Under the pieces are notes generated by a model. It saw nothing but the letters and a program-made list of their open reading frames with translations. It had not been told where the DNA came from and did not search any database. Of a stretch of 64,000 nucleotides of DNA, positions 17,962 through 44,599 are shown piece after piece. The stretch spans positions 7,580 through 71,579 of the IMG/VR virus record IMGVR_UViG_3300020048_000109; one strand, 5' to 3'. Within the stretch, counting starts at the first letter, position 1. Every line of letters begins with the position of its first letter. The position numbers were made by a program, and so were the translations under genes. This stretch comes from a virus (lineage: Duplodnaviria; Caudoviricetes).

Positions 17962-18138
17962 TAAAAACACACAAAATCAGCAAAAATAAGGGTTTCAAGA
18001 AAATTAAAAACGGTTTAAAGCCAGTGTAACTCTCCGCTTCGGCGTTTTAAACCGGGTTAAATTTGGGTCAAACAAGGTGAAAATTGAAAAGTTTAAATAT
18101 TGATAATCAAATAGTTACAATTTAAAAAACGGCTTAAA

Positions 18139-18163
18139 AGAGTTCGAGTCTCTCCGCCCGCAC
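18139..18163 (+). tRNA. tRNA 3' fragment only (T-arm plus acceptor strand, tRNA-Leu-like), att core
   Basis: AGAG-TTCGAGT-CTCT-CCGCCCGCAC; no 5' half upstream; isotype from recalled Bacteroidota tRNA-Leu ends. Confidence 0.7.
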
Positions 18164-18168
18164 TTCTT

Positions 18169-18203
18169 GAAAGCTTATAAACACTGAGTTTGTAAGCTTT
18201 CTT
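18169..18203 (+). terminator. Hairpin downstream of the tRNA 3' core
   Basis: GAAAGCTTATAAAC-ACTGA-GTTTGTAAGCTTTC followed by a T-rich run. Confidence 0.65.
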
Positions 18204-18278
18204 CTTTAAAAGTGGGTTAAAATTGGGTCAATAGATTATTAATATTTACAACTGATAACATTCAGATGTAAAAAAAAA

Positions 18279-19451
18279 ATGTCTAAACTTCAAAAAAATA
18301 ACAAAAGCATCGTTTTTGTAGATTACGTACCTGCAGAGCTTCAGGAAAATAAAGAATGGCGAATAGTTTTTTACGTCAAAAATCCAATCACAGAAAAATT
18401 AGAATCTAAAAGGCCACGTGTAAAACCGTTAAAAAGTATTACTGAACGCAGGAAATTGGCTAAAAGAATGATTTTAGAAATCAATAAAAGACTTGAATCG
18501 GGTTGGAATCCTTTCTACAGCAATAAAGGAACTAAGGAATTGACAAAATTTGCCGATACACTTAAACTTTTTATGAAACGCATTAAAATTGAATACGATG
18601 AAAACAATTTGCGTTACGATACCTACAAAACTTACAGATCACAAATCACAATTTTAGAAAATTATCTGGAAGAAATTAATGCAAAAGATATGCTTTCCTA
18701 TAAGTTTGATGTTGATTTTGTTGGCGCGTATTTAGACAATATCCGATATGAAAAAGGAAGGTCGGCACGTACACGTGATAATTATTTAGGATTTTTAGGA
18801 ACATTAAGTGTCTTTTTACTTCAGAAAAAATATATAGCAGCAAATCCAACTGAAAATTTTAACAAAATCAACAAAAAGGTTAAAAAACGTGTTTTGGTAC
18901 CGGAAACACTGCGCGACATTATTTTTGATTACTGGAAAGGCAAAAATGAAAGTTATTTAACTTTATGTATGACGTGTTACTATTGCTTAATAAGAAGAAC
19001 TGAACTTACAAAATTAAGAGTTGGCGATGTTTCTTTAAAAAATTCAACTATTTGGATTGACGGTGAAGATTCTAAAAACAAAAAAAGCAACGCCATTACT
19101 ATTCCAAATGAATTAATGCCTTTTTTGGTTGAACACCTTAAAACTGCCAAACAAACTGACTATTTATTTTCTAACGATAATTTTGCACCAGGTTCCGCAA
19201 AAATTCACCCGGACCGTGTAACAAAAAGCTGGGCCAAAATGCGTACTGAATTGGAAATAAACAAAAATATTGATTGGTATTCTTTAAAAGATAGCGGAAT
19301 TACTGATTTGTTAAGAGCTGGCGTTCCGTTAATTTCGGTTAGAGACCAAGCCAGACATCACAGTTCTGCGCAAACAGATACTTATACTCCAAAAGATTTG
19401 AAAATTGCCGATAAGAAAATACAGGATTCAACCGTTAAGTTTAATGATTAA
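18279..19451 (+). CDS. int: Tyrosine integrase A
   Basis: LIRRTEL (Arg), YSLKDSG in place of HxxR, QARHHS, TYT catalytic Tyr; SAM-like middle domain; follows the att core. Confidence 0.92.
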   Translation: MSKLQKNNKSIVFVDYVPAELQENKEWRIVFYVKNPITEKLESKRPRVKPLKSITERRKLAKRMILEINKRLESGWNPFYSNKGTKELTKFADTLKLFMKRIKIEYDENNLRYDTYKTYRSQITILENYLEEINAKDMLSYKFDVDFVGAYLDNIRYEKGRSARTRDNYLGFLGTLSVFLLQKKYIAANPTENFNKINKKVKKRVLVPETLRDIIFDYWKGKNESYLTLCMTCYYCLIRRTELTKLRVGDVSLKNSTIWIDGEDSKNKKSNAITIPNELMPFLVEHLKTAKQTDYLFSNDNFAPGSAKIHPDRVTKSWAKMRTELEINKNIDWYSLKDSGITDLLRAGVPLISVRDQARHHSSAQTDTYTPKDLKIADKKIQDSTVKFND

Positions 19452-21229
19452 AAAGTTTCCGTTTCCATATCCACTTTCCAATATTCTTCATTAACTCGTT
19501 TTTTATTTAGGGTTTTAATTAAATGCAGCTTATTGTATTTTTTAATTCCTTTTTTAAAATCAAACGGTTTAGAAATATGGCAAAAAAAAGTGTCTTTATA
19601 AATTTCAGAATTTGTACGAAAAGAAAGCCATATTTTATGCCAATTCTGATAAATATCTTGTAATGATAAGTTTCGATTAGCAAATTTGTCTACAAGTACC
19701 GGCTGATTATTTAAAAGTCCATTGTATAGGCCTATCATAATTTCATTATCATCTTCAGGATATTCTCCTGTAATTAAATTTTCATTATCAGCTATTTTTA
19801 AAGGAAGAATATCAAATTCAACCGTTTCTGTTTCGCCGCTTAGATAATCATTTTCATTATAAATTTGCCCTGTTTTATTAACCAAAACTTCATCACCGTT
19901 GGGGTACATCAATTTAAATAAATTGTTTTTATTTAAGGTTCTTTTATAATCAAGAACTTCAAATTCAGAATCATCATCAAAATTCAATTTTTTTATTGAA
20001 TTGTCTAAATAATTAAGATAAACCGCATTTTTTAGATATACAACGTCAAGATTAGCCCATTTTTTAATGATATTAAAATAGGTTTTAAAAGTCATATTAG
20101 GCATAAAATCGGCCAAAGAATATTCTTGCGGAAATACATTTAAATTTCCGTCTTTAAAATCGAAAATAAAACGCTGTAGTGATTCAATACTATTAACCTG
20201 CTGCGATATTCTAAGAGTGGTTTTAATATTTTCATAAGGGCCATCTTCTGTTAAATTAATGCTTAAGGTGTCATTTAAAATTAAAGCATCATTGGTTGCT
20301 GATGCATTAAAAAGCACCGTTTCTCCGTAGGTAATTTGTAGTTGAAAAAAATCGGCAATGCCTTTAGGAAAATTAACGCTATATTTTAAGGTATAAGTTC
20401 CTTTTGCTGTTGGAACGTGTATTTTTTCATATATATTCACGGTTTTCCCATCAACAGTTTCCTGGTTATTAAAAAAATCGAAGCTAAACATATCTCTTTG
20501 ATCCGGATCTGAATATTCTTGAAAAAATTGCTTAGGAATTAACACTATTTTTTTACAGAATTCATCATTTGGAAATTCACCTCTTAATTCAAGCCCTTCA
20601 CTTTTAAATCCCACTCTTAAAACTTCCAATAAATAAGTCATTGGTGCCATTACATTTTTATTGTTAGGAACCGAAGGATTATCAACTGGATAAGACATTG
20701 CATTTGATAAAAAATAACCGGGATCAGCATAATTATTTACAAAAAGTTGAAACAGTTCATATTTTGATTTTTCTTTTATTTCTGGTCGGTAAACTTTAGG
20801 AAAATTGTGTGAAGTTTCAGGATAACTTTTTGATAGCTGCATTTGTGCATAATCAACCAAAGCAATACCTGCATTAATTATAGGAAACGGCAATTGACTT
20901 AGCTTTTTATCGAATACGGCTAAAATATCTTCGCCATAAAACAAGGTAATTTCTGCTTTCTTTTTTACAATTTCATTTATAACAAGATATGCTTTGTAAA
21001 ATTTGTAATCAAGAATTAAAAAACCTTCAATTTTAATTTTATAACCAGAAATATTATCCAAATTTGGAAGGCCAAGTTTTAATGCAGTTTCATCATCTAA
21101 GGATATATTGAAAGGAAGTGAATAATTTTTTTGAATATCTTCTTTAAAATTGGGTGATTCTTCATTAAAATTTACGCCATATTGTGTTAAATCCAATTTA
21201 TAATTATCGGTAGTTTGAAAGATGATCAT
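19448..21229 (-). CDS. Tail tip / baseplate hub-like protein (homolog of 45719..47539)
   Basis: YSLPFNI, NFPKVY, IMAPMTYLLEVL parallel YSFPFNV, NYPQI, IIQPLPYFLHIL; last gene of the tail operon. Confidence 0.7.
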   Translation of the reverse strand: MIIFQTTDNYKLDLTQYGVNFNEESPNFKEDIQKNYSLPFNISLDDETALKLGLPNLDNISGYKIKIEGFLILDYKFYKAYLVINEIVKKKAEITLFYGEDILAVFDKKLSQLPFPIINAGIALVDYAQMQLSKSYPETSHNFPKVYRPEIKEKSKYELFQLFVNNYADPGYFLSNAMSYPVDNPSVPNNKNVMAPMTYLLEVLRVGFKSEGLELRGEFPNDEFCKKIVLIPKQFFQEYSDPDQRDMFSFDFFNNQETVDGKTVNIYEKIHVPTAKGTYTLKYSVNFPKGIADFFQLQITYGETVLFNASATNDALILNDTLSINLTEDGPYENIKTTLRISQQVNSIESLQRFIFDFKDGNLNVFPQEYSLADFMPNMTFKTYFNIIKKWANLDVVYLKNAVYLNYLDNSIKKLNFDDDSEFEVLDYKRTLNKNNLFKLMYPNGDEVLVNKTGQIYNENDYLSGETETVEFDILPLKIADNENLITGEYPEDDNEIMIGLYNGLLNNQPVLVDKFANRNLSLQDIYQNWHKIWLSFRTNSEIYKDTFFCHISKPFDFKKGIKKYNKLHLIKTLNKKRVNEEYWKVDMETETF

Positions 21230-23115
21230 ATTATAGCCTTTTTAAAATTCAAATTATAAGAATTAAGATATTCCCTTGTTTTATAAATAGTGAGTTTATT
21301 TGTTTCTAAGATAACTTCAGTTGGTACATTGTTTTCATAAATAAAAATCCTTTTTGCTTTTAATATTTTTGAAAACCATTCTATTTCTTCCTGCGATTGT
21401 ATATAACCGGTATTTAAAGTAAAGCCAGGTTCTTCAATAGCTTCAATAACCCTTGTGTGCGCCTGACCTTCAATAGATTTATTAAAAATAGTTTTACCTG
21501 TTTCTAAGTCTTTTGTGAATTTTCCTTTTGTTTCAAAAAACTCGTAGGTTTCCCATTCATTTTCAAAGGCAATTGTATGTAATTCGGTATAAACATTGTT
21601 TATGGTTACCACAAGTGTTTTAGTACCAAAAGTCACGGTAAAAACATCGCCATGGGAAAGTTCATAATCGTTTAAATTAAGTAATAGTGTATAAACATAT
21701 ACATCTACAGGCAGTGAGTTTAAAATTGTAGTTTCAATAGCACCTGTTAATATTGCATTACCAGGGTTAATTATTGAAATTATTGATAACTGAATAATTG
21801 ATTTATTTGAAATGGTTATATTTTCAGGTATAAAACTTAATTTATTCGCAACTACAGGTGTTCTTCCCTTTAAAAATTTAAGATTGGTATAATTGCCAAC
21901 CGTTTTTTGGGCGCCTGTAAATAAATTTACATCATATGCCGCAATATTAATATTTATGGGTTTAGTTTCATTGTGTATTCTTGTGGATAAATTATTTGTG
22001 GGTTGTTTTGATTTTAATAAATAATTTGTTTCAACACCAATTAAAGCATTGCATATGCCTTTAAAATACGGCTGTGAAGTTTGATAATTAATATTTTCTT
22101 CAAAATTAGAGGTATTCATTTCTAAATTCAAAAAAGTATTGTCTTCAACACTAGATACCGTTAGTTTATTTCTATCATCCGCATAATAAAGCATATTACT
22201 TTCAATACCATTAATTGATAGGGCAATCACGCGTAAAGTAATATATGTTTTTTTGATAATACTGTTTGACATAAATACAATTTCGGCTTGATAAACACCT
22301 ACATCCAAGGAAGTGCTGTTTACCGAAATATTGATGTCTGTAATTCCGGAAACACCGCTTAATGCAGATAATACAACCCAAGTTTGGTTTGCTGTGGCTG
22401 TCCAAGTGTTTGCGGTATCTATATTTATCTTTTTTTGAGTAGTGTTGGCTACAAGTTTTTCTGATAAAAATTCAATATTTACGGGCGTTAGGTATAAATA
22501 ATTACTTAAATTATCACCTTCTGTAACTGTTAAATAAACGTTTGTTTGCCTTGTAAAAATGCCATCGTTAATGGTTATTATTGATTGGTACAAGCCAGCA
22601 TTTAACCCTGAAACATTAACGCTAACAGAAATTGAAGCGCTATTTGAACCAATAGTTGAAGATAGTAACACCCAAGTTTGATCAGCAGAAATGCTCCAAT
22701 TGTTTTCAGAAACAATTTGAAGCAATTTTGTAGTAGGTGCAGGGTCTCCAATATTATAATTGTAGGTAAGTAAACTTGGCGTTGCAGTTAAAAAAACAGT
22801 ATCTTCTACAATAAGCTTTACCAGGTACGTTCCCAAATTTGTTGGGCTATGTGTTTCGCTTAATGCCGTAAAACTAATGTTTGCAGAATAACTTCCGGGT
22901 GCTAAATTATTAACGCTATTTTGATCTAAATTAAAGAAAAAAGAACCAAGCGTAACATTAAAACTTTGATTTACTATTTGAAGCCAGTTAGGTTTGCCTG
23001 TGGTTGTTAAAATATAAGTTTCAATTGGCACGTTTACAGTAACTTTTACCGGTGTAGGAATATTTGCGTATTTTTTAAACACAAAAGTTAAAGGCGATGT
23101 TGGCGTAAATCCCAT
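21226..23115 (-). CDS. Tail protein with three BACON-like Ig repeats fused to a distal-tail-like C-terminus
   Basis: Repeats WSISADQTWVLLS...ISVSVNVSGLNAGLYQSIITI and WTATANQTWVVLS...INISVNSTSLDVGVYQAEIVF; C-terminus resembles 47517..48566. Confidence 0.75.
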   Translation of the reverse strand: MGFTPTSPLTFVFKKYANIPTPVKVTVNVPIETYILTTTGKPNWLQIVNQSFNVTLGSFFFNLDQNSVNNLAPGSYSANISFTALSETHSPTNLGTYLVKLIVEDTVFLTATPSLLTYNYNIGDPAPTTKLLQIVSENNWSISADQTWVLLSSTIGSNSASISVSVNVSGLNAGLYQSIITINDGIFTRQTNVYLTVTEGDNLSNYLYLTPVNIEFLSEKLVANTTQKKINIDTANTWTATANQTWVVLSALSGVSGITDINISVNSTSLDVGVYQAEIVFMSNSIIKKTYITLRVIALSINGIESNMLYYADDRNKLTVSSVEDNTFLNLEMNTSNFEENINYQTSQPYFKGICNALIGVETNYLLKSKQPTNNLSTRIHNETKPININIAAYDVNLFTGAQKTVGNYTNLKFLKGRTPVVANKLSFIPENITISNKSIIQLSIISIINPGNAILTGAIETTILNSLPVDVYVYTLLLNLNDYELSHGDVFTVTFGTKTLVVTINNVYTELHTIAFENEWETYEFFETKGKFTKDLETGKTIFNKSIEGQAHTRVIEAIEEPGFTLNTGYIQSQEEIEWFSKILKAKRIFIYENNVPTEVILETNKLTIYKTREYLNSYNLNFKKAII

Positions 23116-23120
23116 TTTAT

Positions 23121-26078
23121 TTATTTTTTTGAAGCGTTAATTGTATTGTCTAATTTTTGTTGTAATAATTGGCGCTCACGTTCATCATCTAAGGTATAAT
23201 TGAGTTTTAAACCATTATTTAAATGGTCATTTAACCTGGATAAAACAGCAACAACCATTGCATTAATATCGTTTGAAGCACCTGCGGATGTGGTGTTTGA
23301 TAAAGCTGTTTCTTTCCCGGTACGTTTTGCTTCTAAATATTCAATAATTTGTGGAACTTCGGGGTCTTTGCGCACAAATTGCGGAATTACGTATTCGTTT
23401 TTGTGAACTAAGCCTGCAACATCACTGTTATTTCCAAATCCTGTATCTCCACCGCCTGAAAAGCCTTTTTTCTTTGATAAAGCAGCACCTAAACCACTTA
23501 TCGCGGCACTTGCTAAGATGCTTCCTTGTTGCATTTTTGAAGAAGCGCCTAAAGCAATATTTTGAGCAGCGGCAGCAACCATAAAAGGAACGTTTAAAGG
23601 TGGCGGTGCGGCGGCAGTTGCGTTTGCTAAATTTATTTGTTGTGCCGATGATGTTGCTATTTTTAATTTTGCAATTTCTATAACGGCATTTAAAGCGATT
23701 GAAGCCAATTGTGCTCCCAATGAATTTCCTAAAATTCCTAACAATACATTGCCTAATTGTTGCGCTAAATTTATTTTTATTTCAGATTTCTGTTTTTCAA
23801 AATTTATTTCAGCAACATCAACTTCATTTTGTTTTTGAAGTCTTTTTAACGCAGCCGATTCAACTATTTTAGCAACATCATTGTTATATTTTTCAATGAT
23901 TTTTAGTTTTAATGCTGCTTTCTGTTCTTCGCTTAGTTTTAATTTATCTAATTCAGTAAGTTCTTTTTCTAAATCAATGGTTAATTTTAGCGCATCGGCT
24001 TCTTCTTGAGTAGTTGCATTTTGTAAATCAATTTCATTTTGTAAGGTTTTTTTGCGAAGTTCAAAATCAGCAATTTTTTGCAATTCAATTTCTTCATCGG
24101 CTGTTTTACCTGCATCAATTTTTATTTTATGCTCGGCTTCAATAGTATCCAGCAATTCCTTTTTAGCACCTAAAGCGGTTGCGGAATTAATGGCTTCGTC
24201 GCGTGCCAATTGCGCTTTTTGTTCGTTACTTACGGCAAGGCGTTGTAATTTTTCTTTTTCATATTGGGTTTCTAAAGCAGTAAGTTTGTCCTGGGCGTCT
24301 TTTGTGGCTTTTAGCTTATCGGCTAAGGATTTTTTTGCTGCTTCTTCCCTTGCTTTTTTTGCTTCTTCGGTTTCTGTTCCTGTTGGTGTAGTTGTTGGCG
24401 TTGTTGAACCGCCTGGTATAACAGGATTTTCAAAAGTGTTTATTTTTTTATTTGCTTCAGCAATTATCGAATTATAGGCTGCAATTTCTTTGGTTAATTC
24501 TTCCTTTCTTACTTTCAAATCTCTTTCTGGCAGACCTGAAAAATGTGCCCAAGGATTATATTCATCAATTTCTTTTTGATTTTTTTCATAAGATTGTTTT
24601 AAGGCATAAAGTGTATTTTTAGCACTTTCTTTAACTGATTTGGCTATTTCAGCATCATTTCCGGTACCGCTTAAATTATTAAACTGAGATTGAAAAGTTT
24701 TAACGCCTTTTGCGGTTCCGTCACCTTGTGCACGTGCGTACAATTCATCCCAAGAAGAATTTAACCTGGTTAAACCGGTTAACGCATTTGAAGCACCTTC
24801 AATCCAAAATTTAAAGAAGTTGGAAATTACGCCACCGCCACCACTTACAGAAAGAATGAAGCTGTCGTATTTTCCTTTTAACAATTCGGTTTTACCGGCA
24901 ACAGTATTCATTTTTATGGAAGCCTGTTCGGTTGCTGTGCCCACTTCACCCATTTTGGAAGTTAATTCACCAATACGATCTGTATGTTCAATGACATTTA
25001 TGGCTGCAGTGGCATTTTCAAGTCCGAATACTTCAATAATATCGGCATTGTTTTTTAACAATGGTTTTAAGGCTTCCAATTTTTGCTGAAGCGGAATTGT
25101 TTTGTCGTTTAAGAATTCCATAGAAATTCCCAAACGCTCAAAAGTGGCTTGAGCTTCTTTTGGAAGTGCATCCGGGGCACTAATTTTTAATAAAACGTTC
25201 CTTAATTTGGTTCCTGCTTCAGCGCCTTTTATACCATTTTCGGCCAATAATTCAACCAAGGCAACACTTTCTTTAATGTCGATGTTTGATGTTCTTGAAA
25301 CGGCACCAAATTTTAAGACAGCTTCTGTAATATCGGGTATTTCTGCTGCGCCATATTTTGCACCGTTGGCCAAAGCATCAACAAAAACAGAAGCTTGCGA
25401 TGCATCGGCACCAAATTGGTTCATTGCATCGGTTAAAGCGGTTGCGGCGGCCGGCATTTCCATTCCTGCAGCTTGCGCCAATGTTAGCGTAGCTTCCGTC
25501 ACCATATTAAGCGCTTCAACATTTTCCAGCAATTCAGGTTTTGCGGATGCAATTAATTTGTAAGCTTCCACAACAGCAACAGCGCCTCCTTTTGTTTCAG
25601 CACCTAAAGTAATGGCCTGATTTTTTAAATATTCTAAATCATCACCAGTGGCACCTGTTATGGCTTGTAAATCGGCAACAGATTGTTCAAATTCATTGAT
25701 AGTTTTTACGGCGCCACGCAAAGCAGACATAGCGCCACCTACTACGGCGCCAATAGAAAACGCGGCAAGAAAGCCGGTAGCAACAGGACCTAATTTTGTT
25801 TTAAGTTTGTCTAACCAATTGCCACTTTCTTTAAGATTAGGAATGCCTAAACCAGTTTCTTCCCTAAATTTCTTTTGTGCGGCTGTTGCCTGCAATAATT
25901 CGGCTTCGGTACGTGCAACTTCTTCATTGTATTTTTTCCATTCGGGGGTTCCTTCAACGGCGGCGTTGCTTTGCGCTTTAAATTTAATTAAAGATTTGCG
26001 TAAATTGGTAAGCGTGGCATCAACTTCATTTCCGTTAATGAAAATTTTGAGCCTTCTGGTGATTGCTTTTTCAGCCAT
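23121..26078 (-). CDS. Tape measure protein A
   Basis: 985 aa; FEQSVADLQAITGA and AAGMEMPAAATAL TMP core, coiled coils, C-terminal GFSGGG...AGLVHKNEYVIP. Confidence 0.92.
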   Translation of the reverse strand: MAEKAITRRLKIFINGNEVDATLTNLRKSLIKFKAQSNAAVEGTPEWKKYNEEVARTEAELLQATAAQKKFREETGLGIPNLKESGNWLDKLKTKLGPVATGFLAAFSIGAVVGGAMSALRGAVKTINEFEQSVADLQAITGATGDDLEYLKNQAITLGAETKGGAVAVVEAYKLIASAKPELLENVEALNMVTEATLTLAQAAGMEMPAAATALTDAMNQFGADASQASVFVDALANGAKYGAAEIPDITEAVLKFGAVSRTSNIDIKESVALVELLAENGIKGAEAGTKLRNVLLKISAPDALPKEAQATFERLGISMEFLNDKTIPLQQKLEALKPLLKNNADIIEVFGLENATAAINVIEHTDRIGELTSKMGEVGTATEQASIKMNTVAGKTELLKGKYDSFILSVSGGGGVISNFFKFWIEGASNALTGLTRLNSSWDELYARAQGDGTAKGVKTFQSQFNNLSGTGNDAEIAKSVKESAKNTLYALKQSYEKNQKEIDEYNPWAHFSGLPERDLKVRKEELTKEIAAYNSIIAEANKKINTFENPVIPGGSTTPTTTPTGTETEEAKKAREEAAKKSLADKLKATKDAQDKLTALETQYEKEKLQRLAVSNEQKAQLARDEAINSATALGAKKELLDTIEAEHKIKIDAGKTADEEIELQKIADFELRKKTLQNEIDLQNATTQEEADALKLTIDLEKELTELDKLKLSEEQKAALKLKIIEKYNNDVAKIVESAALKRLQKQNEVDVAEINFEKQKSEIKINLAQQLGNVLLGILGNSLGAQLASIALNAVIEIAKLKIATSSAQQINLANATAAAPPPLNVPFMVAAAAQNIALGASSKMQQGSILASAAISGLGAALSKKKGFSGGGDTGFGNNSDVAGLVHKNEYVIPQFVRKDPEVPQIIEYLEAKRTGKETALSNTTSAGASNDINAMVVAVLSRLNDHLNNGLKLNYTLDDERERQLLQQKLDNTINASKK

Positions 26079-26462
26079 TTAAAAACGAATTTTACTTGTT
26101 ATTTCTTCGGCACGCAATTCGCCAAGGTCATCAATTAACCGTTCAAGTGCGTTGGTGCTGTTGAATAAATTGGTGAAATGGTTAAAGGGTTTCATACTCA
26201 TTCTTGCGCCATTTTTTTTGATGCCTTCAAAACCATAATGCTGCATAAAAGTGGCCGAAGTTGCTTTTATGACAATGGCATTTACCTGATCAAACTTCAT
26301 TTCAACTGAAGCACCGGCTTTTTGCAACATTAACCCGGTTCCTGTTTGTTTGGTTGATGTTGCCAATATGTTTTTTAAGTTTCTAGATAATGAACGAGCC
26401 GCGTTTTGTCCCGCTTTTTTTTCGAGTGCACTTAAATCACGATCGTTTTCGCCTGTTGCCAT
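26079..26462 (-). CDS. Putative tail completion-type protein
   Basis: Basic 127 aa directly before the TMP; analogous to 54369..54746. Confidence 0.5.
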   Translation of the reverse strand: MATGENDRDLSALEKKAGQNAARSLSRNLKNILATSTKQTGTGLMLQKAGASVEMKFDQVNAIVIKATSATFMQHYGFEGIKKNGARMSMKPFNHFTNLFNSTNALERLIDDLGELRAEEITSKIRF

Positions 26463-26477
26463 ATTGATGATTTTACA

Positions 26478-26513
26478 GCAAGTTGGGATTTGTTTTACGC
26501 TAAAAAAAGGACA
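26478..26513 (-). promoter_or_regulatory. Phage A late promoter candidate (TGTCCTTTT-N19-CAACTTGC)
   Basis: Third copy at identical spacing, heading the TMP operon. Confidence 0.6.
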
Positions 26514-26552
26514 GGGAAAATGAAGTTTAAAGTTTAAAGTTTAAAAAATAAT

Positions 26553-27176
26553 TTATCTTCTAATCTTAAAAACGGTAAAATGATAACCAATAAATATACG
26601 TTGCTCGGTATCGTAGGATGCTGTAAGGATGCTTCCTTTTGCATTTTGAAATCCGATGTTTGCTTTAAACAGTGGTTTGTTAAATTCTAAATTATTGCCG
26701 ACTTCCATACCGGCCAACAGTCTAAATTTTACTTCTTTTGGCTGTACTTCTATTGTTTGTGGCTTAATAACATACGATGGTGTAATTTCTTGCACTTCAC
26801 CCTGGACAATTCCGTTGATGTTGATGATTAAATTTTCGTCTTCAAATTTGGTATCGAATTTATTTAATTGGATGGCTTTTTTGTAGAGTAATTCTTTTTT
26901 CAACAAGTCGTTTTCTCGCTGGTAGGATTTTAACAGACTGTCATTTTGAATAATTATTGGCGCCGGAATCACCGTGTTTTTTGACTTGTCATTTTTGGAC
27001 ACTTTTTGTCCAAAATTTACGGGCGTGTGAATTGGCTTTACCGGATCAAACTTTGCTTCAATTTTAGGCGTTGTGATTATTTGCGGTTTTACCGTTGGCG
27101 CATTGGAGCAGTCGTTTAAAAATATGAAGGCTAACAACGCCGCTATAATGATGTACGGAAAGGATTTTTTAAGCAT
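26553..27176 (-). CDS. Putative spanin-like membrane or lipoprotein
   Basis: N-terminal hydrophobic segment followed by Cys (FIFLNDC); last gene of the lysis cluster. Confidence 0.5.
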   Translation of the reverse strand: MLKKSFPYIIIAALLAFIFLNDCSNAPTVKPQIITTPKIEAKFDPVKPIHTPVNFGQKVSKNDKSKNTVIPAPIIIQNDSLLKSYQRENDLLKKELLYKKAIQLNKFDTKFEDENLIININGIVQGEVQEITPSYVIKPQTIEVQPKEVKFRLLAGMEVGNNLEFNKPLFKANIGFQNAKGSILTASYDTEQRIFIGYHFTVFKIRR

Positions 27177-27195
27177 AATTTCACTTATAAGTTAA

Positions 27196-27636
27196 TTATT
27201 TTACGTTTGGTTCGGTGGTCACTATTAAAACAGCTTCGGTGTAAGCGGCTAAAGCCAAATGAAATTCGGCCATTGTATCTACGCTGTTGGTAATGTCATC
27301 GTAATTGTCTTTGTTTAAATCGCGCAGGCGCAAACCCAAAGCAGTGCAACCTTCCAGTTGTGCCCAATAATTGGCTGCGTGGAATTTACATTCGCTACGT
27401 CCGGGAACATTTTTAACTTCCCAAAGTTTCTTTTTAAACCGATCTGAAAACTCTAATTTAACAGTGAACACACCGGCAGGATAACAGCTTACACGATTGG
27501 CATTGTTTTGCCAGCCACGTTCTAAAGAAAGTGATGTGAACACTAATTTGTTGTTATGGTCTAAAACTGTGCAGGTTCCCAATGTTTGGTTTTTGTCCTG
27601 GTTAATTCTGTGAATTCTTATGATTGGTTTTTTCAT
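27196..27636 (-). CDS. DUF5675-like putative endolysin
   Basis: TLG...LSLERGW...YPAG...VPGRSECKFHAAN...EGCTALG pattern. Confidence 0.7.
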   Translation of the reverse strand: MKKPIIRIHRINQDKNQTLGTCTVLDHNNKLVFTSLSLERGWQNNANRVSCYPAGVFTVKLEFSDRFKKKLWEVKNVPGRSECKFHAANYWAQLEGCTALGLRLRDLNKDNYDDITNSVDTMAEFHLALAAYTEAVLIVTTEPNVK

Positions 27637-28187
27637 TACTCGTTAATTTTAGATTTTCCTTTTTTAAATACATCTACTATTTTGTTGAATTTATCGACCA
27701 CATCGAACCCAAGTTTTTTGGCGTTTTCGAATATGATGGAATAAATTTCGACAGTGATCCAAAAGAGAATGACTATTAATGTAATTGTAAAATTTAATTT
27801 TGAAAATGAAAAACTAAAAGTGTTTAGCATCAAAATTTTATGAAGAAACCAAGCCATTAAAATAGTGGAGCTGTACAACAAAAATTTAACGCCCGATTTT
27901 TTTAAACCTTCCGACGAAATTAAATGTTGATTTTTTAATTCGGGATTTGTTTTTTCAAGTTCTTTTTTGTTGTTCCAAGACACCCAAACGCCTGTTACAA
28001 AATCACCTGCCATTAACATTCCTAAAAATATTCCCATTAGCGTGTTGGTGGAAAATATAGGCATTGCGATAACTAAAGGTGATACCAATATAATTCCGTT
28101 TTTGGAAAACAGTGTTTTGGAAACCACAATAGCTTTTTGTGCGTATGGCACCAAGAGTGTGAGGAATATTTTCATAATTGCAAACAT
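27636..28187 (-). CDS. Putative holin
   Basis: Several transmembrane segments, GDFVTG and SIIFEN motifs; adjacent to the endolysin. Confidence 0.65.
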   Translation of the reverse strand: MFAIMKIFLTLLVPYAQKAIVVSKTLFSKNGIILVSPLVIAMPIFSTNTLMGIFLGMLMAGDFVTGVWVSWNNKKELEKTNPELKNQHLISSEGLKKSGVKFLLYSSTILMAWFLHKILMLNTFSFSFSKLNFTITLIVILFWITVEIYSIIFENAKKLGFDVVDKFNKIVDVFKKGKSKINE

Positions 28188-28220
28188 TTTTTTAGTGATT
28201 TTTGTTATTATTTTGGTATT

Positions 28221-28289
28221 TTAAGTTGATGCTAAGATTAACAAGCCGCTTAGTGTTGTTTTCCAATTTTTTATGATAAAGTTTTTCAT
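28221..28289 (-). pseudogene. Possible remnant of an NWKTT-type small holin
   Basis: MKNFIIKNWKTTLSGLLILAST*, in frame with 27636..28187. Confidence 0.3.
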
Positions 28290-28303
28290 AACTATTTTTA
28301 TTA

Positions 28304-28328
28304 TAAACCGCCTAATTAAAGGCGGTTG
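28304..28328. terminator. Intrinsic terminator hairpin
   Basis: AACCGCC-TAATTAAA-GGCGGTT after 28333..29946. Confidence 0.55.
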
Positions 28329-28332
28329 TTGA

Positions 28333-29946: not shown

Positions 29947-30491
29947 CCCTCGTCTATATTTGGCTCTAACCCTGCATTTACTTGTGCTATTTTAATATTT
30001 TTGGTGTCTTGGTTTTGCAAAAACTTAGTGTTAACGCTGTTTAAATGGTCAATTTTTGCTTGTTCTTCTGCGTTTAAGGCTAAACTTTTAGCGTCTTTAT
30101 AAATGCTATTCATCATTAAAGCAAATTCCCTAACGTGCGTAACTTCGCTAAAAATTGAACTGTTGGCCATAGTTTCTGCATTTTCAATTTCTAAAATAAT
30201 GCTTTCATCTGAGCGTTTAATTGGGTTGAAAGTCATTCTGTATTCTCGTATTCCTGGATAACTTGGATGCTCTTGAAATTCAGCTAAAAAATTAAGGTCG
30301 GGCATTACATCTTCCATTATGAAAATGCGTGAATCATAAGTAGGTTCAGCAAACGGCGTGTGTTTTATTAGCCATTCATAGTCCGGGTCAATTTCACCTT
30401 CAGCAAAAGGCGATAAATCTGCCTTTGGATAATCGGCGTGTTTGATAATTTGTTTAGTGGATTTACGAATCAATACTGCTGGTACACTCAT
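29931..30491 (-). CDS. Hypothetical tail-fibre-associated protein
   Basis: 186-aa ORF between the fibre and LamG genes. Confidence 0.6.
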   Translation of the reverse strand: MSVPAVLIRKSTKQIIKHADYPKADLSPFAEGEIDPDYEWLIKHTPFAEPTYDSRIFIMEDVMPDLNFLAEFQEHPSYPGIREYRMTFNPIKRSDESIILEIENAETMANSSIFSEVTHVREFALMMNSIYKDAKSLALNAEEQAKIDHLNSVNTKFLQNQDTKNIKIAQVNAGLEPNIDEGWLNS

Positions 30492-33616: not shown

Positions 33617-34174
33617 TCAACCTTTATAATTCAATACCCGGTTGCTCACTTTGCTTTGCATACGGCTCATTGAAGCATTCTTTAATATTTCGCGATTGTA
33701 AAGTGTGCGCATACTCTCAAGGCGATAGCCAAACTCATCGAGCTTGTATTCTATCATAAAATCGGATATTAGGTCCTTAATTTTTATGTTAGGCGCGTAT
33801 TTGGCGGCTGTTTTTATGGTATAAACAAATGCAATGCGAAACTGGTCTTCTAAAATATCGTTTAAATCTTCTGCAACTTTTTCAGGAACTTTTAAAAAGG
33901 AATATTGGCCAGATACGCATTTATACATTTGCGCTGAATATTTTGTATTTACATCATCGCTGACGGAAATGTACATATTGAATTTTTCAACCTTTTCCGG
34001 ATAACCGCTTTTTTCTAAAGTAATGCGAAACATTTTGCCAATGGAAGAAGTCATTGTGATTTTGCACGCTTTTACTTTTTTATTGAGGTAGTAAGCTTCT
34101 TTCCCTTTAAATTCTTGGTAAAAGAACGGAATTAAGTGCTGGCGTATTTTAACCGGTACAATGCTTTGTGACAT
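33617..34174 (-). CDS. Protein X' (homolog of 8144..8605), candidate late activator
   Basis: IVPVKIRQHLIPFF strand-helix start; ILEDQFR...FMIEYKLDE..YRLESM parallels MIDKLFR...YLKIYNIDE..IKLESI. Confidence 0.6.
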   Translation of the reverse strand: MSQSIVPVKIRQHLIPFFYQEFKGKEAYYLNKKVKACKITMTSSIGKMFRITLEKSGYPEKVEKFNMYISVSDDVNTKYSAQMYKCVSGQYSFLKVPEKVAEDLNDILEDQFRIAFVYTIKTAAKYAPNIKIKDLISDFMIEYKLDEFGYRLESMRTLYNREILKNASMSRMQSKVSNRVLNYKG

Positions 34175-35225: not shown

Positions 35226-35486
35226 TTATTTAATATTTAGCAGCTGGTCTTTTCTGTTTAGTTTTTTGAAGTATTCAAAATTGTACTTCTTAGTATGTCG
35301 CTGGATGCAACAATAATTTACTTTCCATTTATCTTCGAGTTCTACTTTGGTAAGTGGTGAAAATAAACAATCTTTTGCTATTGCTATTTTAAGATCTTCG
35401 CTTCGGGAAGCATATTTTTTAGTATAATTTTTTTGTTTTGAATTTCTCATAATAATTTGGGAATCACTAATTAAGATTTGAAGCAA
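35226..35486 (-). CDS. Small basic hypothetical protein (start uncertain)
   Basis: ORF between the attC-like site and the origin. Confidence 0.45.
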   Translation of the reverse strand: MLQILISDSQIIMRNSKQKNYTKKYASRSEDLKIAIAKDCLFSPLTKVELEDKWKVNYCCIQRHTKKYNFEYFKKLNRKDQLLNIK

Positions 35487-35584
35487 TATTACTCGGCATA
35501 AAAAGCCGAGTAAGACTGCTTATAACACCTGATAAAGCCAAAGTTTTTTGAAGTAAAAAACCTTGGTTTATCAGTCAGTTAGCC
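35483..35584. repeat. attC-like imperfect inverted repeat, copy 2
   Basis: TTATAAC-ACCTGATAAAGCCAAAG...CCTTGGTTTATCAG-TCA-GTTAGCC plus hairpin TTACTCGGC/GCCGAGTAA. Confidence 0.6.
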
Positions 35585-35696
35585 GTAATGTCGGGCGAAG
35601 AACATTCCATCCATCACAATTTTAGTAAACCATCCCGTCACTTCGGCTAACTCCGTATATAATTAACTTTAAAAAAAGCCATCTACACGTTTATTT

Positions 35697-38669: not shown

Positions 38670-41534
38670 TTAATCTTCTTCTATTTCGTGCGATGATATT
38701 CCATCAGCTTTATCAAAACCTTCCGGCACGGTTAAGGTTCTTATGTAAATAGCCTCTTGCGTTTTATTGTCGATTTTTTTGACAATTCTTCCCGGAGCGT
38801 TTTGCAATTCTTTTGGATTTAAAATATATCCGTTCCAGCTGCAATAAGCTTGTAATGCTTTTTTGAATTTATTGGAAGTCCATTTGCTTTGTTTGGTTGC
38901 TTTTATGAATTCATCAAAAGCCATTTCTTTGGAAAAATATTGATCCAAATATTTATTTTCTTCCACGTAAGTATCAACATTGTTTTGTTTGGTTTCAAAG
39001 AAAGCCAATGCCCAGCCTTGAAAGGCGTCGCCCATTTCGGCTTGTAAACTTCTTTTGGTCACATTGTCCATTGGCGGATTTACCTTCGTTGGATGCGTTA
39101 AAAAGAACTGTAAGCTTTGTGCGCAAAAATTGTAATAAGCATTCCATTCAGCATCGGTAAAATCTTTGAAAAGGTTTCTTCCTCCAAAATCGGCAGAAAC
39201 TTGTCTTTCTTCCCTATATTCATTGTCTTTATTAAAATGATAATAATCAGAAAAAACCGTATACAACAATCGTCTGGCTGTTGATGGATCGGCATTAAAA
39301 ACCGTAAAGTTTGAAGCAATCACAAATTTTGGCGCTTTGTTGAAAGGAATTTCAAACGGTTGCATATTTTTCGGATTCACTTTTATGGATCCGGTTATTT
39401 CTGAGAAAAAGAAATCGAATTTCAAATATTGCGAAGCATCATCAATCATAATATAATCGGTGTCTTCGGTTACGCCTGCATAGATGAAATCGTTTTGCGT
39501 TAATTTTTCGTCACGGCCTTTTAAATAAAATCGTCTTTTTAAAATATGATTTAAAGATCCGTAGCACAATGATTTTCCAGAACCACCGTGGCTTTCTCCA
39601 TTTTCAGAAATTTTGTTGTCCATCGCAAATACACACCAGGCTTTACTCTCGTCTTTGTATTTGTGAAGCATATACCCGATTGAATATATTTTATTGATTA
39701 AATGCTGTTTTTGTTCATGAATTTCATCTTCAGTTAAATTTTCACCTGCAATATTGAATTGATTTTTTGCAAAATATTCTTCACGGTCCTTCTCAGTTTT
39801 TCCATCAAAAGATTCTTCTAATTCTTTGCGCCAGTGCACACGAGAAGTGTTGATTAAATAATTCAGGAATGGATTGTCGGCTTTCAATATTTCGATATTT
39901 AAATCGCCTGCAACATCTTTGGTAATTGTAAAATGCGGATCCTCTTTTTTTGCATTGAAATCAATAATTTTATCTTCCCAAATAAATTTATCCACTTCGC
40001 CTTGTTTGTATTCAACTATTTCTCTTTTTGAAATTTTCCAAACTGTTTTTGGAAAGAACAGGTATTGTGTTTTGATATCGGCATCAGTAAAATCAATCTC
40101 TAATTTCGGTAATTTAGAAAGTGAACGCTCGCTTAATTGCGGACTTTTATAAATGTAATCTCTTAAATTTGGGTGCATTTGGCGCTCTTCCAAAAATGAA
40201 TGCACAAAATTTTCAATTTCATACGGATGCAACACTTTTACTATGCTTCCTTCTTTTTTGATGTACAAAAAACCTTCTTTTAAATTTTCACTTTCATAAC
40301 GGCCAAATCCTAAATTTGAAAGGAAATGATACAACCTGGTATTTGATAAATTGTAGTTGGTTTTTTTCTCAGTTTTATATTCTGTCCAAAACTGCATTGG
40401 CAATGCATTGGCAATTAATTTATCAAGCGCATAAATAAAAGTGTTTGGATTTTCTTTACGGTAAAATTTCTCCACATAATCCTTAAAATCTTTGCAAGGA
40501 TTTCCTCTTTTATCTCTGTATAACTTCAATTTATCAGGCAACCAAAGCAATTTTATATCCAAATATTTTAAACCCATCACAACCGCTTGTTTAACGCCTG
40601 TGCTGTCAAGATCGGCAACATAAAATATCTCCTTCACCCAAACTTTCAATTTTTTGTACTCTTCCCAATCCAAATGCTCACTTTCTGAATTAAACCAGAT
40701 AGGAAATTTACCGAAGCTCCAAAGGTTGATGCCGTCAGAACCACCGCTGATAATAAAAACAGCCTCCAATCGCGGATCTTTCTTTTTAGTTGGTGCAGCT
40801 TCATCTTCTTCATCATCACCGGTTACCGAATAATCAACATCATCATCTTCTTCCAACGCCTTTTTTCTTCTTTTAAATTCAGCTTCAATCAATTCCATAC
40901 CAAACATATGGCGTGGCGGTTTGGTCCCGGCATAACGAAAACGGTATTGTTTTTCGAATGAGTTTGGCTGGTAAATTTTTTGCCAAGTGCCAAAATCAAA
41001 AACCAAGATTGGATATTCATCGGTTGCCGTAGTGACAATGGTTTCATTTTCCTTGCAATAAGCAAATGACTGGCAAGAGCGAAGTTTAAAATCGGCACAA
41101 TGTTTTTCGTTTACACGCTGTCCAATGATGGCCAATTCTTTTACGGAAAAATCTTTGTAAGTGAAATGATAACTTCCCGGAGTTTCTTCATCCGTTAAAG
41201 GCCGTTTTTCAATGATTGGTTTCCAAACTTGCATTTCGGCACCTTTAATATTGAAACGAGCGCCCAGCAAAGCACAAGCTTCGCCATAGGTAATATTTTC
41301 TTCCAATGCGCAAACGTGAATTCCGTTTCTGGAAACCTGGTCTCCGCCAAAATCGGTAACCACCCAAACGCCATTTGGTAATTGCTTTAAAGAAGCAGAG
41401 GCTGTTTTTTCTGATTCCCTTAATTTAAATTGAATATTCTTTTTTGATTGATTTGCATTTGGATAATATGCTGATATGATGTCAAGTCCTCCGTTAGTGG
41501 CATCAAAAATGTCAGTGTCTTTTACGTAACTCAT
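38670..41534 (-). CDS. Bacteroidota phage primase-helicase (TOPRIM plus P-loop), not DnaG-type
   Basis: WVVTDFGG N-terminus, SGGSD and ADLDSTG TOPRIM-like motifs, GGSGKS Walker A, MIDD Walker B, KFVIASN sensor, RRLL arginine finger. Confidence 0.85.
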   Translation of the reverse strand: MSYVKDTDIFDATNGGLDIISAYYPNANQSKKNIQFKLRESEKTASASLKQLPNGVWVVTDFGGDQVSRNGIHVCALEENITYGEACALLGARFNIKGAEMQVWKPIIEKRPLTDEETPGSYHFTYKDFSVKELAIIGQRVNEKHCADFKLRSCQSFAYCKENETIVTTATDEYPILVFDFGTWQKIYQPNSFEKQYRFRYAGTKPPRHMFGMELIEAEFKRRKKALEEDDDVDYSVTGDDEEDEAAPTKKKDPRLEAVFIISGGSDGINLWSFGKFPIWFNSESEHLDWEEYKKLKVWVKEIFYVADLDSTGVKQAVVMGLKYLDIKLLWLPDKLKLYRDKRGNPCKDFKDYVEKFYRKENPNTFIYALDKLIANALPMQFWTEYKTEKKTNYNLSNTRLYHFLSNLGFGRYESENLKEGFLYIKKEGSIVKVLHPYEIENFVHSFLEERQMHPNLRDYIYKSPQLSERSLSKLPKLEIDFTDADIKTQYLFFPKTVWKISKREIVEYKQGEVDKFIWEDKIIDFNAKKEDPHFTITKDVAGDLNIEILKADNPFLNYLINTSRVHWRKELEESFDGKTEKDREEYFAKNQFNIAGENLTEDEIHEQKQHLINKIYSIGYMLHKYKDESKAWCVFAMDNKISENGESHGGSGKSLCYGSLNHILKRRFYLKGRDEKLTQNDFIYAGVTEDTDYIMIDDASQYLKFDFFFSEITGSIKVNPKNMQPFEIPFNKAPKFVIASNFTVFNADPSTARRLLYTVFSDYYHFNKDNEYREERQVSADFGGRNLFKDFTDAEWNAYYNFCAQSLQFFLTHPTKVNPPMDNVTKRSLQAEMGDAFQGWALAFFETKQNNVDTYVEENKYLDQYFSKEMAFDEFIKATKQSKWTSNKFKKALQAYCSWNGYILNPKELQNAPGRIVKKIDNKTQEAIYIRTLTVPEGFDKADGISSHEIEED

Positions 41535-43101: not shown

Positions 43102-43671
43102 CTAAATGAGGTTAAGACTGCGCGCAATAAGCGCCACTTCTTGTTTTGTTTGTACTTTTAGTTTATCGTACAATGCTTTTTTTAATTTGTGGAATGTGCC
43201 AAAGTGAAGGTGTAATTCTTCGGCAATAACTTCATTAGTTGCACTGGTTGAAGTCATTTTCATCAGGGCAATATCAACAGGCGTAAGATCCTGATTGTTG
43301 TATTTTGGCGATTTACAAACCAATCCGTTGCTAGGGCAGGTTGCTCTTAACGGGCAATCCCAATATTCACCACTTTGCAAAGTGTTTTCTTTAATATCGG
43401 CTTCAAAATCCAAGCCTCCAAAACGGCATTTTGCAAATTGTTCCAAACGTTTGTATTCGCTGTTTGGATGCCAGTCCATTAAGGCCATTTTTAAAGCTGA
43501 ATCTTTTTCAATTGTTTCTCTCAACAATTGTATAACAGGAAATGACAGTTCGGTAAAATTGGAGACTTTACCATTGGCAATCATTTTCACTTCATCCTCG
43601 ACGATGAAGAACTCAATCCCGGCACAATACATTCCAGGATAAAGATTTGGAAATTTTTCTGTGAGTGTCAT
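43102..43671 (-). CDS. LuxR-type HTH regulator
   Basis: LTPVDIAL...NEVIAEELHLHFGTFHKLKKALYDKLKVQTKQE. Confidence 0.85.
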   Translation of the reverse strand: MTLTEKFPNLYPGMYCAGIEFFIVEDEVKMIANGKVSNFTELSFPVIQLLRETIEKDSALKMALMDWHPNSEYKRLEQFAKCRFGGLDFEADIKENTLQSGEYWDCPLRATCPSNGLVCKSPKYNNQDLTPVDIALMKMTSTSATNEVIAEELHLHFGTFHKLKKALYDKLKVQTKQEVALIARSLNLI

Positions 43672-43676
43672 AATTT

Positions 43677-44054
43677 TTAGGTGTTAATGGTTATTTCAAT
43701 TTTCTCTAATAGTTTCTTGTTTTTTTTAGCAACAAGAAGTAAAGCGTTTAAAACATCAATTCTATTTGTGGTGCGCGCAGCTCGCACATTTCGAACAACT
43801 GCAGAAGTAACTTTTACGTTTTTTTTCTTCAAATTTTTGACAACCTCATTGGCATATTCGTAGGGTAAATGGGCGTCTAAAAAGTCATAAGCTTTCGAAA
43901 TATGCGAATGCACTTTTTTTTCTGAAGGATTGTTTACTATATTTGTCATATCTGTGTACATTTGTGTATATATGTGTACAAATGTAATAATAAAATTGAC
44001 ATATAGGTATAATTTATAAATTATTTTTGATACATATATACAATTTATAATCAT
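43677..44054 (-). CDS. Cro-like early protein (true start probably ATG near 43950-43965)
   Basis: Divergent from CI; VRNVRAARTTNRIDVLNALL HTH-like. Confidence 0.55.
   Translation of the reverse strand: MIINCIYVSKIIYKLYLYVNFIITFVHIYTQMYTDMTNIVNNPSEKKVHSHISKAYDFLDAHLPYEYANEVVKNLKKKNVKVTSAVVRNVRAARTTNRIDVLNALLLVAKKNKKLLEKIEITINT
44009..44024. promoter_or_regulatory. Perfect palindrome ATAATTTATAAATTAT, candidate operator
   Basis: Between the divergent Cro and CI starts; AT-only, so chance is possible. Confidence 0.35.
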
Positions 44055-44062
44055 TCTAAATC

Positions 44063-44380
44063 ATGGAATTTCACGAAAAATTAAAACAGTACCTAAAGAC
44101 CACTGGATTCTCACAAAAAGAAGTGGCGAAAAAGATTGGGTATAGCGATTCTATGATGTCTCGTTATTTAAAATCAAACAAACCAAATTATGAATTTCTT
44201 AATGCCTTGATAAAGGTGTTCCCAGACATTGATTTAAACTACCTGTTTAAAGATGATACTGAAGAACATTTGGCAGAAGGGATTGGTCCTCACACCAAAG
44301 ATGAAGTGGTTTTAATTGATGAAATTGAGCTAAGACTTCACTTTCTAAAAGAGGTTTTGACACAAAAACGACACGAATAA
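44063..44380 (+). CDS. CI-like XRE HTH repressor
   Basis: FSQKEVAKKIGYSDSMMSRYLK..KPN...IDLNYLF. Confidence 0.85.
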   Translation: MEFHEKLKQYLKTTGFSQKEVAKKIGYSDSMMSRYLKSNKPNYEFLNALIKVFPDIDLNYLFKDDTEEHLAEGIGPHTKDEVVLIDEIELRLHFLKEVLTQKRHE

Positions 44381-44599
44381 TATTTAACACATTGTTAACC
44401 TGCGTATTATGTGCTTTAAATTAATCCTTCTGCGATCACAAAGGTTGAGTTAACCAATAAATTAGAGTGCTATTGCATAGTTAAATTGCTATGTTTTAGC
44501 ACTTTATTTTTTAACTCAATTTTTACCTAATCCCCAAATGACACTATTAAATAGCATATTTGACACAAGGGTTGACACAAACAAAATTTATGTGTCAAT
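44357..44599 (+). other. attP-like site of phage B: TTGACACAA arms flanking a tRNA-like core and long hairpin
   Basis: Arms at 44357 and 44368 (left), 44560, 44572 and inverted 44592 (right); core AATCCTTCTGCGATCAC 44423-44439; inverted repeat 44445-44519. Confidence 0.7.
44423..44439 (+). tRNA. Possible tRNA 3' fragment (Arg-like end GCGATCAC), att core
   Basis: AATCC T-arm strand plus acceptor strand; isotype is from memory and uncertain. Confidence 0.4.

Follow-up and report, generated by a model that had tools for sequence, protein, structure and literature searches.

A 71.6-kb virus contig holds two different temperate Flavobacteriaceae phages, most likely joined by an assembler path through a shared fibre-lysis cassette

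The virus contig studied here consists of two different temperate Flavobacteriaceae phages, designated A and B, each with an intact attP. Their joining in one record most likely reflects an assembler path through a fibre-plus-lysis cassette of about 6.2 kb that both phages carry in near-identical form. The contig is 71,579 bp in total, and the window, meaning the whole stretch of 64,000 nucleotides that was analysed, corresponds to its bases 7580-71579; positions below are those of the window unless the contig is named. The layout runs from A-specific DNA through one copy of the cassette, mostly of the B allele, into B-specific DNA, and the record strings together about 1.75 phage genomes from A and B.

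1-27173, extending outside the window to contig base 56, minus strand: phage A-specific DNA, by its match to the A-type contig k141_358661
27174-33393 (about 6.2 kb), minus strand: cassette shared by A and B, where the haplotype switches from A to B
33394-64000, minus strand: phage B-specific DNA, laban6-1-like, colinear with NC_048834 and 99.9% identical to ENA k141_79392

The sequence-only reading had proposed two distinct temperate phages with duplicated modules, and this was borne out: the two integrases, both of the tyrosine type, are unrelated, the cores beside them are tRNA 3ʹ ends, and the phage gene sets are doubled in the contig, with two TerL genes, two tape measures and two replication modules all present. 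The core proteins of A and B are about 22-26% identical.

Phage A is a temperate siphovirus of Flavobacteriaceae with a size of about 41 kb.

1-1185 plus upstream sequence, within the minus-strand A segment: TerL of A, 501 aa (PHROG/Pfam)
1742-3028: ParB-N6 methylase (PHROG/Pfam)
6319-7470: S49 protease (PHROG/Pfam)
11012-14470: primase (PHROG/Pfam)
16153-16728: KilA-N (PHROG/Pfam)
17101-17487 and 17607-17825: HTH genes (PHROG/Pfam)
18054-18231, plus strand: attP of A, with arm repeats at 18054-18071 and 18214-18231 and core at 18139-18163
18279-19451, plus strand: integrase A, tyrosine recombinase, 390 aa (phrog_1, E=1.8e-33; PF00589 on an identical protein)
19448-27176, minus strand: late genes, including 593-aa and 629-aa distal tail proteins
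23121-26078, minus strand: tape measure
26079-26462, minus strand: 127-aa gene
26553-27176, minus strand: 207-aa predicted lipoprotein, third gene of the lysis block

The gene order of A agrees with that of its IMG/VR relatives (L004-L006). The UViGs 3300037047_000329 (L006), 3300008255_004509 (L004) and 3300033553_000698 (L007) share 89% identity with A in TerL and 85% in the portal, and in all of them, as in A, TerL is followed further on by the portal, DUF6712 and the fibre, and then by the 127-aa gene and the tape measure; in A, the DUF6712 ORF between portal and fibre encodes 311 aa. The relatives are 41.6-42.8 kb in size, and carry the A-type fibre N-terminus on a fibre body of the same kind, with tail genes next and no B genes. 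They differ from A in their fibre bodies, which reach only 41-47% identity, and in the gene content between the fibre and the 127-aa gene; of the A relatives, only L007 and L008 have the DUF5675 gene in common with A (87-92%).

The core of A corresponds to the 3ʹ end of tRNA-Leu(UAG), from the T-arm to the discriminator, over 24-25 nt in many Flavobacteriaceae. The 18-mer GGGTTAAAWTTGGGTCAA has exactly two copies in the window, at 18054 and 18214, one on either side of this core, compared with a chance expectation of 0.02 matches. The earlier suggestion of a tRNA-3ʹ-like core with an arm motif on both sides therefore stands for A, and these matches indicate that the phage would integrate at tRNA-Leu(UAG). 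A search of genome contigs with integrase A found no relative, and neither A nor B was encountered as a prophage in a host genome.

Phage B is a temperate siphovirus of about 45 kb related to laban6-1 (Duneviridae).

33617-34174: gp42-like gene
38670-41534: 954-aa replication protein
43102-43671: LuxR-type regulator
44063-44380, plus strand: HTH repressor-type gene
44357-44580, plus strand: attP of B, with core at 44423-44442 and TTGACACAA repeats at 44357, 44560 and 44572
44538-45722, plus strand: integrase B, tyrosine recombinase with arm-binding N-domain, 394 aa, 43% identical to the laban6-1 integrase
45719-52249: tail genes, with the tape measure at 48566-52249 (PHROG)
55420-56313: capsid-like gene (PHROG)
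56643-57590: DUF6712
57592-58968: portal (PHROG)
59691-61624, plus strand: SymE/ArdC-N/methylase block
61729-63423: TerL of B (PHROG)
63395-64000: gp30-like gene, cut by the contig end

The closest known phages are Flavobacterium phage vB_FspS_laban6-1 (NC_048834; Duneviridae, Labanvirus), whose temperate lifestyle is proven (PMC7077304), and the 6H group of F. psychrophilum phages. There were 25 B-side ORFs that match NC_048834 in colinear order, with the two genomes sharing the succession of integrase, tail, capsid, portal, plus-strand SymE/ArdC/methylase block and TerL, and again the stretch from gp42 to the repressor. Protein identities to laban6-1 are 30-60% (portal 54%, TerL 56%, integrase 43%), and no match was found at the nucleotide level, where a 28 kb megablast against phage records returned nothing. 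In B, unlike laban6-1, an insertion of the fibre, 186-aa and LamG genes separates the gp42 homologue from the holin, and a different 954-aa replication protein stands where laban6-1 has its primase.

For B, positions 44423-44438 of the core and up to four further bases (16-20 nt) correspond to the 3ʹ end of tRNA-Arg(UCU), a match seen in 3 of the 301 Flavobacteriaceae genomes searched. The laban6-1 record is linearised at the site homologous to the B core; its attP position agrees with that of B, and its tRNA-3ʹ core is homologous. The motif TTGACACAA is present in four copies in the window against 1.05 expected, and three of them cluster at attP; the copies at 44560 and 44572 fall within the first 45 nt of the called integrase B ORF. 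Thus the tRNA core that had been claimed for B was upheld, and the arm motifs proved weaker than claimed. From the core match, tRNA-Arg(UCU) is the probable integration site of B. Rfam made no partial tRNA call in either att region.

Each core has an HTH repressor-type gene on its left and the integrase and tail genes on its right, in agreement with the initial description. At both att regions the core sits between arm repeats, which is the attP arrangement of the excised form; A and B are both circularly permuted relative to att, as had been supposed. With integrases 26 kb apart, one might think of two neighbouring prophages in a bacterial chromosome. This explanation is extremely improbable, because a core between both arm repeats is the arrangement of attP rather than of attL or attR, the breakpoint of each genome lies elsewhere than at att, and the 71.6 kb contig has neither a host gene, extending to the full contig the absence noted earlier, nor a tRNA gene detectable by ARAGORN.

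The change from A to B sits at or inside the cassette, not at one joint at 26.5 kb.

27196-27636, minus strand: DUF5675 (Pfam)
27636-28187, minus strand: holin
28333-29946, minus strand: LamG-domain protein (Pfam)
29931-30491, minus strand: 186-aa protein
30519-33548, minus strand: fibre-like 1009-aa ORF, covered by the cassette from residue ~52 onward

The junction that the sequence-only reading had placed at 26.4-26.7 kb was not confirmed: L015 and L017, which are independent A contigs, both keep the 207-aa gene beside the 127-aa gene and together with the tape measure. The 207-aa protein has an N-terminal signal with a Cys, and a 207-like gene also follows the DUF5675 gene in another contig (L150). 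We considered this protein as a tail tube and rejected the assignment, given its lipoprotein signal, its place after the holin and DUF5675, and its replacement in B by a different lipoprotein.

The cassette is common to A and B at 96-99.9% nucleotide identity, and its edges are gene boundaries: one is the start codon (ATG) of the neighbouring gene, and the other lies at about residue 52 of the fibre. Our contig is 99.88% identical to a B-type contig (L011) along 17,001 bp that stop at the start codon of the 207-aa gene, and the ends of A-type contigs match our cassette at 96% (L017) and 96.5% (L016). Of 87 informative cassette sites, 72 have the B allele in our contig, nine the A allele and six a base unique to it. 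A tblastn search of phages with the LamG protein found nothing.

Exact-protein look-ups retrieved independent MEGAHIT and Logan contigs carrying A or B, and the two phages are unlinked in three other assemblies. B occurs alone in ENA ERZ27262922 as k141_79392 (44,963 bp), which is 99.88-100% identical to positions 27174-64000. A single sample, ERZ27262925, holds A as k141_358661 (36,769 bp) separate from B as k141_58870 (44,985 bp), and these B contigs of ~45 kb are colinear with laban6-1. Our contig matches k141_358661 at 100% over 12,966 bp of A-specific DNA and at 99.0% over 12,002 aligned columns, and the identity falls to about 96% in the cassette, where the B contig matches at 99.9%. The A contig breaks inside the cassette at both ends, as expected where a repeat is shared. 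Logan contigs of SRR7760394 likewise break at 27198 and 27401, at the left cassette edge, and a contig of SRR7760391 links the cassette to the S49 block of B. An assembly chimera of two induced prophages had been mentioned earlier only as an alternative; the separate contigs and the shared cassette point to it as the correct reading, and we infer that no single molecule carried A and B together.

In a short-read de Bruijn graph, the cassette would act as a repeat shared between A and B; a switch segment of 6.2 kb at 96-99.9% identity exceeds what short-read pairs can span. The assembler path would start at a k=55 vertex inside the 57-nt repeat of the A fibre gene, pass through A-specific DNA into the cassette, exit on the B side and halt 8 kb before closing B.

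32403-32457 (contig 39982-40036): 55-nt stretch identical to contig bases 1-55

The 57-nt repeat has two copies 948 nt apart in the fibre gene of A and one copy in that of B. Exactly 55 nt of the repeat in the A fibre gene open the contig, a length commonly used by assemblers as k. Since the true repeat is 57 nt, the contig start reflects k=55 rather than biology. The contig is non-circular, its ends do not overlap, and no repeat was detectable at its 3ʹ end. We also considered contig bases 1-39981 as an exact circle, with the 1009-aa ORF being chimeric at 32403-32457. This was rejected, as the 1009-aa gene is unchanged in independent B contigs and the fibre of A runs past the repeat into a further unit and a second repeat copy.

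Neither genome is complete in the contig. A is without one fibre repeat unit and one copy of the 57-nt repeat. B is without the 8,018 bp needed to close its circle, and the gap lies exactly where A DNA attaches. The missing segment (the 189-aa lipoprotein gene, Peptidase_S49, the 714-aa protein and others, up to the start of the gp30-like gene) is present in k141_79392, after DUF5675 and running to the gene at the last base of our contig, in an order that agrees with gp42 to gp30 of laban6-1.

A real recombination product across the cassette, either a cointegrate or a hybrid replicon, formed between the two unrelated temperate phages in one Flavobacteriaceae host and able to target tRNA-Leu and tRNA-Arg, is unlikely. 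The cointegrate or composite episome favoured by the sequence-only reading is not supported, given the separate A and B contigs elsewhere, the shared 6.2-kb switch segment, the incomplete B and the 55-nt start. In its explicit form, a cointegrate of ~86 kb would arise by homologous recombination between cassette copies in a doubly infected or lysogenic cell, with our contig a partial copy. Such an event is biologically possible in a double lysogen, with 6.2 kb of homology at 96-99.9% to act on; the two intact attP sites imply that both genomes were circular or replicating, and the assembly graph would look the same. However, the contig has one A-to-B transition, which is one of the two hybrid joints required, both parents are incomplete as described above, and A and B form separate contigs in the three other assemblies. 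Moreover, ~86 kb is twice the size of any relative (41-47 kb) and would presumably be unpackageable by either head. We therefore regard a cointegrate as quite unlikely.

Very unlikely is a single natural hybrid phage or episome whose true order is A-specific DNA, cassette and B-specific DNA, with two integrases. The contig is continuous, and its left joint is not one that a k=55 crossover of the ERZ alleles could produce, because only about 20 nt are shared there. At this joint, 19 nt separate the DUF5675 stop from the start codon of the 207-aa gene, and the 37-nt insert that the A allele has in ERZ27262925 is absent. As a point against the assembler path too, the exact joint was found in no other long contig among the viral and metagenome contigs searched by pattern, and the exact DUF5675 protein of our contig had no match in the protein-position index. 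The cassette allele of A in this sample could itself be a natural recombinant. Against a hybrid, such an element would carry duplicate packaging, head, tail and replication modules and be without the S49/714-aa block that every B relative conserves; furthermore, the contig is non-circular and starts at a k-mer repeat, and the same combination was found in no other record.

The assembler path through the cassette is thus the preferred reading, and the finding is an ordinary one, in which a collapsed-repeat assembly walk meets phage mosaicism. It resembles inter-genome chimeric metagenome contigs formed at shared repeats, with the same long near-identical module in otherwise dissimilar genomes, contigs of other assemblers that break at the module edges, and an end on a k-mer-sized repeat. 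If a cointegrate or hybrid were true, the record would describe an element with two integrases that can target tRNA-Leu and tRNA-Arg. As the record is most likely chimeric, inferences from it about size, gene content, host or a "two-integrase" element would be wrong, and the main value of the finding is a caution on this virus record.

A 6.2-kb unit at 96-99.9% nucleotide identity in two co-occurring temperate phages with ~25% identical core proteins is a clean case of natural modular exchange, an instance of a well-known process, and suggests that A and B have a common host. The one special feature is that the putative receptor-binding genes (fibre and LamG) and the holin and DUF5675 genes travel as one unit, set in different genomic contexts in A and B.

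The 71,579-bp contig, whose bases 7580-71579 form the window, has no terminal overlap, and almost all genes of the window lie on the minus strand. Two temperate Flavobacteriaceae phages, A and B, are represented, each with a tyrosine integrase, and an all-against-all BLASTP comparison detected no similarity between the two enzymes:

18279-19451, integrase A, tyrosine integrase
44538-45722, integrase B, tyrosine integrase

The sequence-only reading had placed a tRNA 3ʹ-like core with flanking arm motifs at each integrase, and both cores were confirmed. For A, the core (window 18139-18163) precedes the integrase and matches, base for base over 24-25 nt, the T-arm and acceptor 3ʹ end of tRNA-Leu(UAG) genes in Lutibacter, Aquimarina, Salinimicrobium and many other Flavobacteriaceae. 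For B, the core, again ahead of the integrase (window 44423-44438, extending at most to 44442), is the 3ʹ end of tRNA-Arg(UCU), matched in 3 of the 301 Flavobacteriaceae genomes searched, and the record of Flavobacterium phage vB_FspS_laban6-1 is cut at homologous sequence. No tRNA gene was found in the window. The arm motif held well for A, where an 18-mer occurs exactly twice, once on each side of the core (0.02 copies expected), and less well for B, where the statistics are weaker and the beginning of the integrase ORF contains two of the copies. These cores and arms indicate that both att regions are attP-like, and host DNA is absent from the contig; to this extent the sequence-only reading holds. 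That attP sites target tRNA genes and carry arm repeats is textbook knowledge.

Beside attP A, tandem repeats of 29-30 nt (window 17806-17915) lie downstream of and overlap a 72-aa HTH gene, with one further copy at window 8621-8643. This contig and the ENA contig k141_358661 differ in the array by exactly one 30-nt unit, and a Logan contig breaks at it. Several Flavobacteriaceae genomes matched by the A core (L049, L068, L021 and L024) carry partial tRNA-Leu(UAG) copies, running from anticodon stem to 3ʹ end after non-tRNA sequence, which look like att duplications of other elements integrated at the same tRNA.

The proposed fusion of A and B near 26.5 kb, by contrast with the att regions, is very probably not real. 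Exact-protein look-ups led to contigs from other assemblers and other samples in which the two phages are separate. The B-type contig k141_79392 (ENA ERZ27262922, 44,963 bp) is 99.88% identical to window 44174-27174, across the complete 1009-aa fibre, the 186-aa gene, the LamG gene, the holin and DUF5675, and departs from our contig precisely where the next gene after DUF5675 has its ATG. Beyond this point it encodes a 189-aa lipoprotein, a Peptidase_S49, a 714-aa protein and nine further genes, and after 8,018 bp it meets the very last base of our contig again, with 99.9% identity over TerL, portal and tape measure and 100% over integrase B. Since this contig runs from window 44436 round to near 44554, it makes one full pass of the B circle, and B is thus a self-contained genome of ~45 kb, cassette included.

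The A genome corresponds to k141_358661 (ENA ERZ27262925, 36,769 bp), which is 100% identical to contig 12966-1. Past the 55-mer that opens our contig, it continues into a ~0.9 kb fibre unit (96.5% identity to window 32458-33393), a second repeat copy and then window 32402 downward. Its opposite end begins within the holin and passes through a DUF5675 allele 96% identical to ours; the 207-aa and 127-aa genes come next, and then the tape measure and integrase A. With cassette sequence at both ends, it therefore breaks within the same segment on both sides. A separate B contig of 44,985 bp is also present in ERZ27262925. In Logan contigs of SRR7760394, breaks fall at window 27198 and 27401; one contig of SRR7760391 begins at the 55-mer, crosses the cassette and enters the S49 block of B.

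The segment common to A and B, here termed the cassette (window ~27174-33393), has its left edge at the start codon of the gene that follows DUF5675 and its right edge at about residue 52 of the fibre. For comparison, 818 + 1,213 bp of A-type cassette sequence were available. Of the 87 informative sites, our contig agrees with B at 72 and with A at 9, the latter in short patches; the other 6, where its base is unique, are clustered third-codon positions (window 27211-27225). Outside the cassette, its identity to the A contig is 100% over 12,966 bp of A-specific DNA; in the A-specific DNA at the other end of that contig, the differences are a 16-SNP cluster plus one more SNP in the 207-aa gene, and otherwise only a 30-nt indel in the tandem array. 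Given A identity outside and B alleles inside, the contig switches from the A to the B haplotype at the cassette's left end.

With separate A and B contigs elsewhere and a common 6.2-kb segment, the best explanation, and a very probable one, is that the assembler walked through a collapsed repeat. The contig comprises A-specific DNA (contig 56-34752), one cassette copy and B-specific DNA, stopping 8 kb short of closure. Short-insert read pairs would be unable to bridge the 6.2-kb segment, so that, from the way such assemblers work, the A-to-B linkage presumably has no data behind it. Chimeric contigs at phage modules held in common are a known artefact. A true A/B cointegrate formed by recombination within the cassette would yield an identical assembly graph, but we consider it highly improbable, because the contig has one joint only, both genomes are incomplete in it and no relative reaches more than about half the size that a cointegrate would have.

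The left joint of our contig lacks a 37-nt insert present in the ERZ27262925 A allele and has only about 20 nt in common with the B context, so it cannot come from a k=55 crossover between these two particular alleles; no other long contig showed the exact joint. The A phage of this sample most likely carries a cassette allele of its own that is nearer to B, with the crossover deeper within DUF5675, where stretches of 84-143 nt carry no known differences.

The contig start is not a biological end. No repeat in the contig is longer than an exact 55-mer found at bases 1-55 and again at 39982-40036 (window 32403-32457); its counterpart in the A contig measures 57 nt and is present in two copies 948 nt apart. 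Our contig starts exactly 55 nt before the two repeat contexts diverge, as expected of a de Bruijn path with k=55. Joining base 39981 to base 1 in silico gives an intact 824-aa ORF; a 39,981-bp circle with a chimeric 1009-aa ORF was rejected by the independent contigs. No repeat explaining the stop at the B end was found. The last ORF there (window 63395-64000) is cut by the contig end, and the full gene in k141_79392 encodes 212 aa, starting 33 nt past our last base.

B represents a new relative of vB_FspS_laban6-1, a temperate Flavobacterium phage (PMC7077304), and of 6H-type phages. It is colinear with laban6-1 over the integrase, distal tail proteins, tape measure, capsid-like protein, DUF6712, portal, SymE/ArdC-N/methylase block, TerL and gp30, and, across att, over the repressor, a LuxR-type regulator and homologues of gp51, gp50, gp46 and gp42. 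The plus-strand block (window 59691-61624), comprising two small ORFs and SymE-like, ArdC-N-like and N6 methylase genes, sits antisense between TerL and portal; its position and sequence are conserved in laban6-1 gp23-gp27 (37-60% aa identity). A belongs to the same broad group, distantly only (25-26% identity in primase, TerL and distal tail protein; 22% in portal). Its close relatives are IMG/VR contigs of 41.6-42.8 kb, and it is a new member of an uncultured group known from IMG/VR. A second, short patch of A/B homology, ~140 nt of non-coding DNA in the early regions (window 9876-10017 and 35448-35588, 80.6% identity), is surrounded by unrelated genes.

What remains as a real observation is a fibre/LamG/holin/DUF5675 unit common to A and B in differing genomic contexts: between DUF6712 and the lipoprotein/tape-measure block in A, and between an early gene and the lipoprotein/S49 block in B. 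Its presence in two otherwise dissimilar phages is ordinary phage mosaicism. The fibre-like gene (window 30519-33548; positions 12376-14136 of one k141_358661 end) contains an internal tandem duplication of a ~310-aa unit. In B, the units are 61% identical to each other; a linker precedes each, with one 57-nt stretch exactly repeated in A. Between A and B, only the N-terminal anchor of the fibre differs (179 aa in A, ~52 aa in B), as though one and the same receptor-binding body had been fitted to two different virions. The predicted lipoproteins following holin and DUF5675, of 207 aa in A (window 26553-27176) and 189 aa in B (16998-17567 of L011, a stretch of k141_79392), are unrelated in sequence: A/B homology ends exactly at their ATG, with ~20 nt of ribosome-binding region in common. 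A more distant relative, L150, retains the pairing of DUF5675 with a gene like that for the 207-aa protein.
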